Shown in pieces: positions 37,296 to 37,824 of a DNA stretch of 64,000 nt. Source of the DNA: Sedimentisphaerales bacterium (GTDB lineage Bacteria; Planctomycetota; Phycisphaerae; Sedimentisphaerales; SM23-30); assembly GCA_963666285.1 (NCBI GenBank), contig OY762711.1; one strand, 5' to 3'. Position numbers and translations under genes: made by a program. Positions within the stretch are counted from its first letter, which is position 1; each line of letters opens with the position of its first letter. The notes beneath the pieces are model-generated. The model was not told the origin of the DNA. It searched no databases and saw only the letters and a list, made by a program, of their open reading frames with translations.

Positions 37296-37646
37296 TCACA
37301 CTAAATCACTTCTCTCTTTACTTTTTGATATTAGCGAATTGAGCATTCTTTCAATTTCATTACCTAAACTGTCAAGTTCTTCAAACTTATCCTTTGATAC
37401 ATATTCAAGCCGATTAACAATCTCAAGCTGTGTTTGAATTTCAAATAGCGAGCCAAGCGACATACGCAAAAACCTGGCAAACTCAACAGGGCTGTACCTT
37501 CCAAAACCCTCAGCTATATTGCTTGGTATAGATACAGCTGCCCTGCTCATTTGAGTTGAAAGTGAGTATTTTTCTTCTGCGGGAAACTCTTTTACTATAG
37601 CGTAAATAAGCATAGTAAAATCTATACTTTTTTGCCACACTACCAA
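37296..37646 (-). CDS. Four-helix-bundle protein (23S rRNA intervening-sequence protein family)
   Basis: 116 aa; ..SIPSNIAEGFGRYSPVEFARFLRMSLGSLFEIQTQLEI.. is the family signature. Inserted between cysD and cysN together with repeat S1. Confidence 0.75.
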   Translation of the reverse strand: MVVWQKSIDFTMLIYAIVKEFPAEEKYSLSTQMSRAAVSIPSNIAEGFGRYSPVEFARFLRMSLGSLFEIQTQLEIVNRLEYVSKDKFEELDSLGNEIERMLNSLISKSKERSDLV

Positions 37647-37664
37647 GTCTCGATAACTCTTAAG

Positions 37665-37824
37665 GTGAGCTCTGGAAATTGCTTTTGATGCGATAGTTTA
37701 AGATTTTGGTTGCTGACAAGGAATATAAAATCGTGCATATTGGGCTATATTCACTGTTTTATATGACGCATGTTAGCAGGCAAAAGAAAAACTAGTCGCT
37801 CAAAATGAATTTTCAGAGGTTGCC
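37665..37824 (+). repeat. S-family intergenic repeat, copy 1 (~160 bp), candidate small RNA or MITE
   Basis: About 92% identical to 42776..42934. Differences include paired substitutions in TTGCTGACAAGG / CATGTTAGCAGG (copy 1) versus TTGCTGGCAAGG / CATGTCAGCAAG (copy 2), consistent with a conserved stem. Confidence 0.6.

Follow-up and report, generated by a model that had tools for sequence, protein, structure and literature searches.

A miniature mobile hairpin inside a four-helix-bundle gene between cysD and cysN in a Sedimentisphaerales bacterium

In the 64,000-nt stretch of contig OY762711.1 analysed here (the window), from a Sedimentisphaerales bacterium, the sulfate-activation genes cysD and cysN are separated by a small gene encoding a four-helix-bundle (4HB) protein and by a repeat, S1, of which a second copy, S2, lies elsewhere in the window. 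How did a gene and a repeat come to lie in one operon, and do they belong together? The original prediction had proposed that they may form a single mobile cassette or an accessory of a retron or diversity-generating retroelement (DGR), and that the repeat may be a small RNA (sRNA) or a cis-regulatory RNA. We consider it probable instead that the locus holds two unrelated and nested layers of selfish DNA, namely a hairpin of the MITE type (a miniature transposable element with inverted repeats) inside a decaying cassette that carries the 4HB gene and resembles an intervening sequence (IVS) of 23S rRNA. The apparent cassette made of S and 4HB would then be a coincidence of two nested insertions.

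Insertion of S1 into the four-helix-bundle gene

The features that carry the argument are given below; R1 is a covariance model of the hairpin family, described in a later section.

37296-37659, minus strand: remainder of the 4HB gene, reading frame intact (PF05635 E 9e-39, TIGR02436 E 6e-38)
37660-37663: target-site duplication TTAA, 4HB side of S1
37664-37824, plus strand (the better-folding strand, antisense to the cys operon): S1, 161-bp S-type hairpin element (R1 41.5 bits, E 3e-8)
37825-37828: target-site duplication TTAA, cysD side of S1
37829-37835, minus strand: original 4HB start (ATG AGT A..), placed by S1 excision, which matches orthologue N-termini
42775-42934, plus strand: S2, 160-bp S-type hairpin element (R1 35.9 bits, E 7.5e-7)
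42771-42774 and 42935-42938: target-site duplications TATA around S2

On the minus strand, the sequence across S1 reads ATG AGT A-TTAA-S1-TTAA-G AGT TAT CGA GAC TTG GTA GTG TGG. When S1 and one TTAA are removed, it becomes ATG AGT ATT AAG AGT TAT CGA GAC, which encodes MSIKSYRD and gives the 4HB start MSIKSYRDLVVWQK. Orthologous 4HB proteins start with MSIKSYRELIVWQK, MSLKSYRELIVWQK and MSIKNYREIVAWQK, and their genes are uninterrupted in three relatives (L062, L063 and L065). Since excision restores MSIKSYRDLVVWQK, as in the orthologues, S1 was inserted in codons 3-4 of a pre-existing 4HB gene. The predicted repeat is real, but it lies inside the original 4HB frame and not simply between cysD and the 4HB gene. 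The ATG (37835-37833) is now parted by S1 from the rest of the frame. The open reading frame (ORF) of 116 aa, of the 23S rRNA IVS protein or four-helix-bundle family, covers 37296-37646 on the minus strand, with possible restarts at TTG 37646 (116 aa) and at GTG 37640 (114 aa). The latter gives the length of P0001, a database protein 99% identical to the window 4HB. Exact protein look-ups with the window 4HB, the window CysN and P0001 returned no identical record.

The same kind of flank is found at every S-type copy for which it was compared. In six of six copies (160-161 bp, from two genomes), the 4-bp flanks are identical: TTAA three times, TATA twice and TAAA once, the last being a direct, non-palindromic duplication. 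Aligned over 163 nt, the direct repeats S1 and S2 have an identity of 92.6%, in agreement with the predicted value of about 92%, and the window holds no other full S copy. S2 is a separate insertion between two unrelated genes, which encode a 489-aa hypothetical protein (best homologue at 37% identity) and a zinc-ribbon protein and are both in the same sense as S2. At the cys locus, S1 is missing in five of five relatives. The ends of the element, GGTGAGCTCTGG.../...CAGAGGTTGCC, form terminal inverted repeats, and the whole is an imperfect palindrome. It is non-coding: a 1-nt indel between S1 and S2 disrupts the sole short ORF, and no ORF is kept across subfamilies. S is a miniature mobile element, its mobility being shown by these observations, and it has the attributes of a MITE: a short non-coding sequence, terminal repeats, a fixed target duplication, an empty site and dispersed copies.

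The four-helix-bundle cassette and its relatives

If S1 entered a gene that was already there, the presence of that gene between cysD and cysN has its own history. Gene calls confirm the predicted order of cysD, the 4HB ORF and a cysN-type GTPase gene, all on the minus strand.

37940-38737, minus strand: cysD, sulfate adenylyltransferase subunit 2 (NF003587 E 5e-107, PF01507)
35926-37167, minus strand: cysN-type GTPase gene, sulfate adenylyltransferase subunit 1 (TIGR02034 330 bits against a cut-off of 336, NF003478 E 5e-99)

The 265-aa form of CysD, which begins MDRLD as in all relatives aligned, is 100% identical to the 265-aa database protein P0127; the longest ORF reaches 38782. A search with CysD found the closest relatives, L085 and L087 (CysD 95% and 93%, CysN 93% and 92% identical), which are syntenic with the window in the order phosphodiesterase-cysD-cysN-rtcR. 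There, cysD and cysN are contiguous, with gaps of 127 and 108 nt, and neither 4HB nor S is present. In the relatives L062, L063/L064 and L065, cysD is followed by the 4HB gene, then by cysN where the contig extends that far (L062 and L063), and S is absent. These 4HB-bearing relatives, also Sedimentisphaerales, are more distant than L085 and L087 (CysN 78-80% identical). The adjacency of cysD and cysN, which the original prediction had called normal, is seen in L085 and L087 but not in L062 and L063, where 4HB intervenes. The position of the cysN-type gene is unchanged across relatives, and the order of the sulfate-activation genes is otherwise ordinary in the clade. In L062, the interval between cysD and the phosphodiesterase gene holds a transposase gene of the Y1 (IS200/IS605) type at 8310-8924, which is missing from the window and from the other relatives.

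The 4HB gene is a separate insert, older than S1. The prediction that it is an inserted unit with IVS features stands: it is absent in L085 and L087, and long inverted repeats occur in the relatives that have it. Its best database matches, at 69-73% identity, are the same-locus proteins of relatives, the next best being at 57%, and its presence is patchy between close relatives. The orthology of the window 4HB with that of the relatives favours a cassette that would have been present ancestrally and then lost in L085 and L087.

A joint movement of S1 and 4HB into the cys operon, as one IVS-like cassette or as a retron- or DGR-like accessory, would suit the adjacency of the two and the known occurrence of the 4HB family in intervening sequences and among the Avd proteins of DGRs (PMC4990558). 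We find it hardly credible. Three relatives have 4HB at the same site without S, which is the gene order that the original prediction itself had named as speaking against its proposal, and S1 splits the 4HB frame with a TTAA duplication of its own. The suggested check for 4HB genes beside other S copies found none: 19 S-family copies (S2 included) have neither a 4HB gene nor any recurrent gene as neighbour. A retron or DGR accessory is excluded locally, as no reverse transcriptase is found among the ten main ORFs scanned between 34.2 and 45.7 kb (RtcR, CysN, 4HB, CysD, phosphodiesterase, two hypotheticals, zinc-ribbon, hydrolase and ankyrin proteins). The window 4HB shares with DGR Avd its four-helix-bundle fold and a weak match to PF22296 (bAvd), but scores below the cut-offs of both models, with 34.2 bits against 40 for PF22296 and 26.6 against 80 for NF033474; in contrast to a DGR, the locus also has no template/variable repeat pair nearby.

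In relatives, a pair of inverted-repeat arms encloses the 4HB gene, directly after the cysD stop and before the cysN start. They are built of 7-8-nt tandem units and measure 55 nt at 80% complementarity in L062, 41 nt at 95% in L063 and 21 nt at 90% in L065. Of six further loci examined, in the same clade and in a Tenacibaculum genome, five show such bracketing; the arms of 4HB genes there reach 36 nt (L083), 39 nt (L084), 39 nt (L088, Tenacibaculum) and 29 nt (L089a). In the minimum-energy fold of the L063 cassette, the two arms pair around the ORF. Complementarity of the flanks, 130 nt on each side of the gene, was compared between eight 4HB genes and 47 neighbouring control genes. The z values of the 4HB genes were 16.0, 13.8, 8.4, 7.4, 4.9, 4.8, 3.3 (L089b) and -0.2 (L063), so that six of the eight lie between 4.8 and 16.0, against a mean of 0.4 and a maximum of 3.5 for the controls. 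The low value of L063 arises because its arms lie outside the tested flank. In the window, one feature was compared with the arms of L062 and L063:

37876-37899, minus strand: small G+C-rich hairpin 3' of cysD, after two GTAATAAGATACAA copies, with a terminator-like match

It is probably the eroded left arm region of the cassette, judging from that comparison.

Several observations on similar arrangements were made besides. In a 4.6-Mb relative genome (L089, 1-4402), three 4HB genes are dispersed among his-operon genes, and in L083, L084 and L088, 4HB genes, plus a PDDEXK_3 gene, lie between unrelated genes. Most 4HB genes at such loci are bracketed by inverted arrays of 7-8-nt tandem units, for instance AAGTGCAG three times or ATAAGAA in variable number. 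The window itself has a module of CCTTATC/CCTAATA-type heptads followed by the hairpin CTCAAACnnnCCATCGGTCAGTTTGAG, at 20009-20078, 32993-33062 and 44277-44323, with further positions at 32736-32771, 32986-33021 and 41387-41422. The 4HB-bracketing arms of relatives consist of similar modules, each an ATAAG repeat plus a small G+C hairpin.

The closest known system is the ORF-bearing IVS of 23S rRNA in Coxiella and Leptospira, whose protein belongs to the same family (PF05635, E 9e-39). In Coxiella, RNase III cuts out this IVS, in which a 28-bp terminal inverted-repeat stem carries the S23p (4HB) ORF in its loop (PMC4990558). The 21-55-nt inverted repeats of the relatives, predicted to pair around the ORF, resemble that stem. 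In contrast to a 23S rRNA IVS, the 4HB cassette lies between protein genes of an operon, and not in helix 25 or 45; no rRNA gene is found within the window. Its arms also differ, being arrays of 7-8-nt tandem units, and in the window they are eroded and the gene start is cut by S1.

Structure, strand preference and spread of the hairpin

If S1 arrived independently of 4HB, what kind of element is it? S1 and S2 each fold as one imperfect hairpin of about 165 nt. On the plus strand the energy is -71.8 kcal/mol for both (z -11.6 and -9.9), against -48 to -51 kcal/mol on the minus strand. The original prediction had inferred a conserved stem from reciprocal changes in two 12-nt segments. Those segments show instead three one-sided changes that keep a pair or wobble (U.G to U-A, G.U to G-C and A-U to G.U). 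Between S1 and S2 there is one true compensatory pair (U-A to C-G, alignment columns 66:105), and one further change disrupts a pair. These two copies alone say little of a conserved stem, but the stem itself is well supported in a set of seven S-type sequences, made up of S1, S2, four copies from the Phycisphaerae metagenome-assembled genome (MAG) MAG24 and one from a Planctomycetaceae MAG. There, 93.7% of cells are paired and both sides have changed in 20 of 59 pairs. Shuffles give 9.3 +/- 1.9 such pairs (20 is attained in 0 of 500), and slid controls give no more than 5. Among the 20 doubly changed pairs, two are palindromic target duplications and not element sequence. The hairpin structure of S is under selection.

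Folding is also specific to one strand. Among 28 members, the sense strand has 166 G.U pairs against 14 single (1x1) A.C mismatches, and in the S type it folds 17-30 kcal/mol better than its complement. The plus strand of the window, which is the sense strand of S, is C-rich (GC skew -0.15 to -0.25); mutation bias would give the opposite and is therefore not the cause of the G.U excess. Replication-strand bias was likewise rejected, since single contigs hold copies in both orientations and the sense strand in the window is C-rich. With mutation bias set aside, the G.U excess and the stronger sense fold indicate that S is selected to fold as a single strand, which may be RNA or single-stranded DNA. 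Over the whole window (1-64000), the plus strand has a strong and uniform negative GC skew (-0.08 to -0.25 when taken in windows of 8 kb), independent of gene orientation.

A covarying structure with a one-strand G.U bias is also what would be expected of ordinary chromosomal sRNA genes or cis-regulatory leaders, duplicated by recombination and selected by the host, for instance in sulfate assimilation; S2, moreover, shares the orientation of the two genes that flank it and lies just upstream of one of them. We think this unlikely, given the exact 4-bp duplications and the precise empty site, the unrelated neighbours and mixed orientation over about 25 copies, and the copies within phage tail operons. 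As S1 is absent from five of five relatives of the locus, and its better-folding, sense strand is antisense to the host operon, a cis-regulatory role in the cys operon does not fit. Promoter and terminator signals are not above chance. A sigma-70 promoter inside S (CTGACA-17-CATATT) is kept in the S type only, the promoter scan being at chance level; a sigma-54 promoter in the core was rejected, its matches being at the level of chance, and so was a small conserved ORF behind the AAGGAA motif, because frames, starts and stops vary.

S-like hairpins extend beyond the S type, and one of them lies in the window:

33605-33736, plus strand: S3, 132-nt hairpin of a divergent subfamily (R1 51 bits, E 1.3e-10)
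33512-33759: 248-bp element containing S3, with TTA flanks at 33509-33511 and 33760-33762

The original prediction had noted a partial third copy at about 33618. This sequence does share the core of S1 and S2 (UUUUGUUUGCUGACAAGGAA ... ACGCAGCUCAGCAGACAAAAGA), but it is a complete hairpin (-64.9 kcal/mol, z -8.7) whose apical and basal stems differ from theirs. The terminal inverted repeats of the 248-bp element, of 19-25 nt, read GCCCGGATATTCCATAAAT, and its site is empty in L085 and L087. It was inserted at the upstream edge of a conserved non-coding sequence of about 170-200 nt (33343-33508, minus strand; CAGGCTCGATGGAAACGGTT ... GTGGATACCG), which lies 3' of a tRNA-like element, has no Rfam match and is kept in both close relatives (L085 10300-10560, L087 12600-12798).

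For the wider family, the 20-nt core common to S1, S2 and S3, TTTTGNTTGCTGNCAAGGAA, was scanned in one genome per species. About 22 of 58 matches are long hairpins with the core on the 5' arm and a fitting 3' arm. Their hosts are Phycisphaerae MAG24, a Planctomycetaceae MAG, Desulfovibrionaceae (with at least 10 copies in a single MAG), other Deltaproteobacteria and, among Gammaproteobacteria, Pseudohongiella and Motiliproteus; a metagenome scan with a two-part pattern added one further member. S-type copies number two in the window and four in the MAG24 loci examined. A larger subfamily (the Desulfovibrionaceae/phage type), found in one Desulfovibrionaceae MAG, other Deltaproteobacteria, Pseudohongiella, Motiliproteus and three viral contigs, has TA flanks and extra conserved internal loops (AUGnAGGnAGU ... 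GACCGnAAUA). The viral contigs, of Mu-like phage, carry four copies within tail-gene clusters. Two different phages have a copy between the genes for tail sheath and tail tube, oppositely oriented; a further one follows a large ORF, upstream of a gene of the minor tail protein Z (GPZ) family, and another sits between baseplate and fibre-like genes. The contigs with the sheath/tube copies are phage-like, one A+T-rich and one G+C-rich: L066 has copies at 5923-6047 and, 4 kb off in the same orientation, at 9974-10098, and L082 has one at 1748-1872. Many copies of the family adjoin stop codons or sit between convergent genes. Where the surrounding genes run in tandem, the sense strand of the hairpin points with them in about 5 cases and is antisense to them in about 7. 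R1, which was built from 17 non-window sequences alone, matches S3, S1 and S2 on the plus strand only and finds two variant-core copies missed by the pattern. The family is uncatalogued: Rfam (release 15) gave no match at the gathering score for S1, S2, S3 and homologues in 18 loci, and at E<=10, for S1, a Desulfovibrionaceae copy and the 18 loci, nothing beyond tRNAs, a terminator and noise. Neither S1 nor the hairpins of the Desulfovibrionaceae and phage type had a BLAST match among plasmids or cultured phages, and literature searches on sequence strings, on MITEs in Desulfovibrio and Planctomycetes and on the 4HB family returned no description of the hairpin.

The recurrence of one core in different settings leads to another reading, in which the core is a functional, strand-specific rod of RNA or single-stranded DNA that binds a protein. 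It would travel as cargo of unrelated miniature transposons or insert itself into existing palindromes, which would then become its outer stems. We regard this as possible but doubtful. At least four kinds of outer stem and flank surround the same core, and S3 lies within another terminal-repeat element. The 13-bp helix of the core includes three U.G pairs in tandem, and its internal loop, CAAGGAA / (G/A)ACGC, contains tandem G.A-type juxtapositions (kink-turn and loop-E forms of the internal loops were considered from sequence and are not claimed); the ratio of G.U to A.C (166:14) and the extra conserved internal loops of the Desulfovibrionaceae/phage type fit it too. Yet no recurrent partner protein lies beside the copies, many are antisense to the only obvious transcription, pattern-based sampling inflates the conservation of the core, and there is no sign of the core moving without its outer stems. 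If this reading were true, the hairpin would be a mobile non-coding RNA gene, with a protein partner, spreading across phyla and into Mu-like phage tail operons, and not a mere transposon remnant.

Probable nested insertion, its difficulties and its significance

The two nested layers that we consider probable would have formed as follows. In the older step, a cassette of about 0.6 kb with the 4HB gene would have entered between cysD and cysN. In relatives, the transcript is predicted by folding to pair the inverted repeats into a long stem with the ORF in its loop, and RNase III might cut this stem, by analogy with the IVS. In the window genome, the bracketing repeats would since have eroded. 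More recently S1, a non-autonomous 161-bp element of the MITE kind, would have inserted at TTAA in codons 3-4 of the 4HB gene and duplicated the TTAA. Severed from its ATG, the otherwise intact ORF could restart only at the internal TTG or GTG. S2 would be an independent insertion of the same element at TATA, and S3 a diverged relative within another small terminal-inverted-repeat element. Mobilisation would be by a transposase supplied in trans, making 4-nt staggered cuts at TWWA. As for the fold, our preferred guess is that the S transcript is a rod recognised by a protein or by an RNase, which would make insertions tolerable or help the element to spread.

Strand-specific folding would also be accounted for if the hairpin were a substrate for single-strand DNA transposition, as in IS200/IS605 or REP/RAYT, and a Y1 transposase gene does occur at the locus of one relative. 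This is very unlikely. These systems make no target duplication, while the S type has exact 4-bp duplications that vary from copy to copy, and both orientations are found on single Desulfovibrionaceae MAG contigs; transposition of the IS200/IS605 type therefore does not fit. In addition, the sense strand in the window is C-rich; if leading strands are G-rich here as they usually are, it is not the template of the lagging strand.

Among known elements, ERIC/IRU of Enterobacteria and Vibrio are the closest analogues. They are small, non-coding imperfect palindromes of 127 bp, intergenic in operons and in either orientation, flanked by short A/T duplications and conserved beyond the genus; their RNA structure may matter, and its constraint has long been argued. 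Like them, S is a dispersed imperfect palindrome over its whole length with A/T duplications. In contrast to them, it shows no sequence similarity, has 4-bp TWWA duplications, conserves an internal core and not its ends, and belongs to a family that spans at least three phyla plus phages. S also resembles the Correia/NEMIS elements of Neisseria and the classical bacterial MITEs, which are non-autonomous, measure 100-160 bp, have terminal inverted repeats and target duplications, insert in or beside genes and form hairpins in transcripts. Classical MITEs are defined by their ends, whereas in the S family the ends differ between lineages and the core is common. In a census of prokaryotic MITEs, 97.4% were genus-specific (PMC11602168).

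Several points weigh against nested insertion as set out here. First, strand-specific folding is unexpected for the cut-and-paste of double-stranded DNA. Second, neither the window nor the loci examined contain an autonomous element or a transposase with matching ends; an IS4/IS5-type transposase end in L085 was rejected because its termini are unrelated to those of S. Third, the termini and flanks differ within the family (TWWA of 4 bp in the S type, TTA around S3 and TA in the Desulfovibrionaceae/phage type), and conservation is highest in the interior, whereas in a classical MITE it is highest at the ends. This core conservation is partly due to construction, as the homologues were fished with the 20-nt pattern from the window; that pattern has no bearing on the 3' arm, on the loops or on the copies found by the model. 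As regards the older layer, no repeat that brackets the window 4HB is significant (as high a score is reached in 22 of 300 shuffles); because of this, and because its start codon is cut off by S1, we take the cassette to be decaying here. Finally, five relatives do not suffice to distinguish a loss in L085 and L087 from gains that occurred independently at one site.

Some other features of the window are recorded here. Neither rtcB nor rtcA adjoins the rtcR gene (34209-35801, plus strand). On the minus strand, a near-consensus sigma-54 site, TGGCACGGCGGTTGTT (34064 to 34049), is directed away from rtcR to a tRNA-Leu gene (33927-33855). The tRNA-like element that comes next, at 33852-33778, has an acceptor stem of 4 bp and matches the Rfam tRNA model at positions 4-67 only, and a sub-threshold match to YrlA (Y RNA-like) covers 33798-33900 (34.5 bits, gathering score 69). 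In L087, a Ro60 (vWA_Ro60) gene is divergent from rtcR and is followed by the same tRNA-like element. From these sequence matches, 33778-34208 together with rtcR may be an RtcR-controlled Y-RNA/tRNA-like locus. In addition, a non-coding repeat family of 70-230 nt is found at 18325-18597, 23999-24227, 46816-47055, 50279-50528 and 55229-55290, in four to five copies with 64-89% identity, no common open frame and no Rfam match. These repeats may represent upstream regions that paralogous genes have in common, or a further dispersed element.

The two layers matter for different reasons. 4HB (S23p) genes have been unexplained since the 1990s; here they appear as discrete, repeat-bracketed cassettes in Phycisphaerae and in a Bacteroidota genome. 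Their position between operon genes extends the architecture of the 23S rRNA IVS to mRNAs, and they offer comparative material on how such cassettes move and on whether RNase III excises them from operon transcripts. The S family, with its presence in at least three phyla and on phage contigs and its clear one-strand fold, is a test case for selection at the RNA level on small mobile palindromes.

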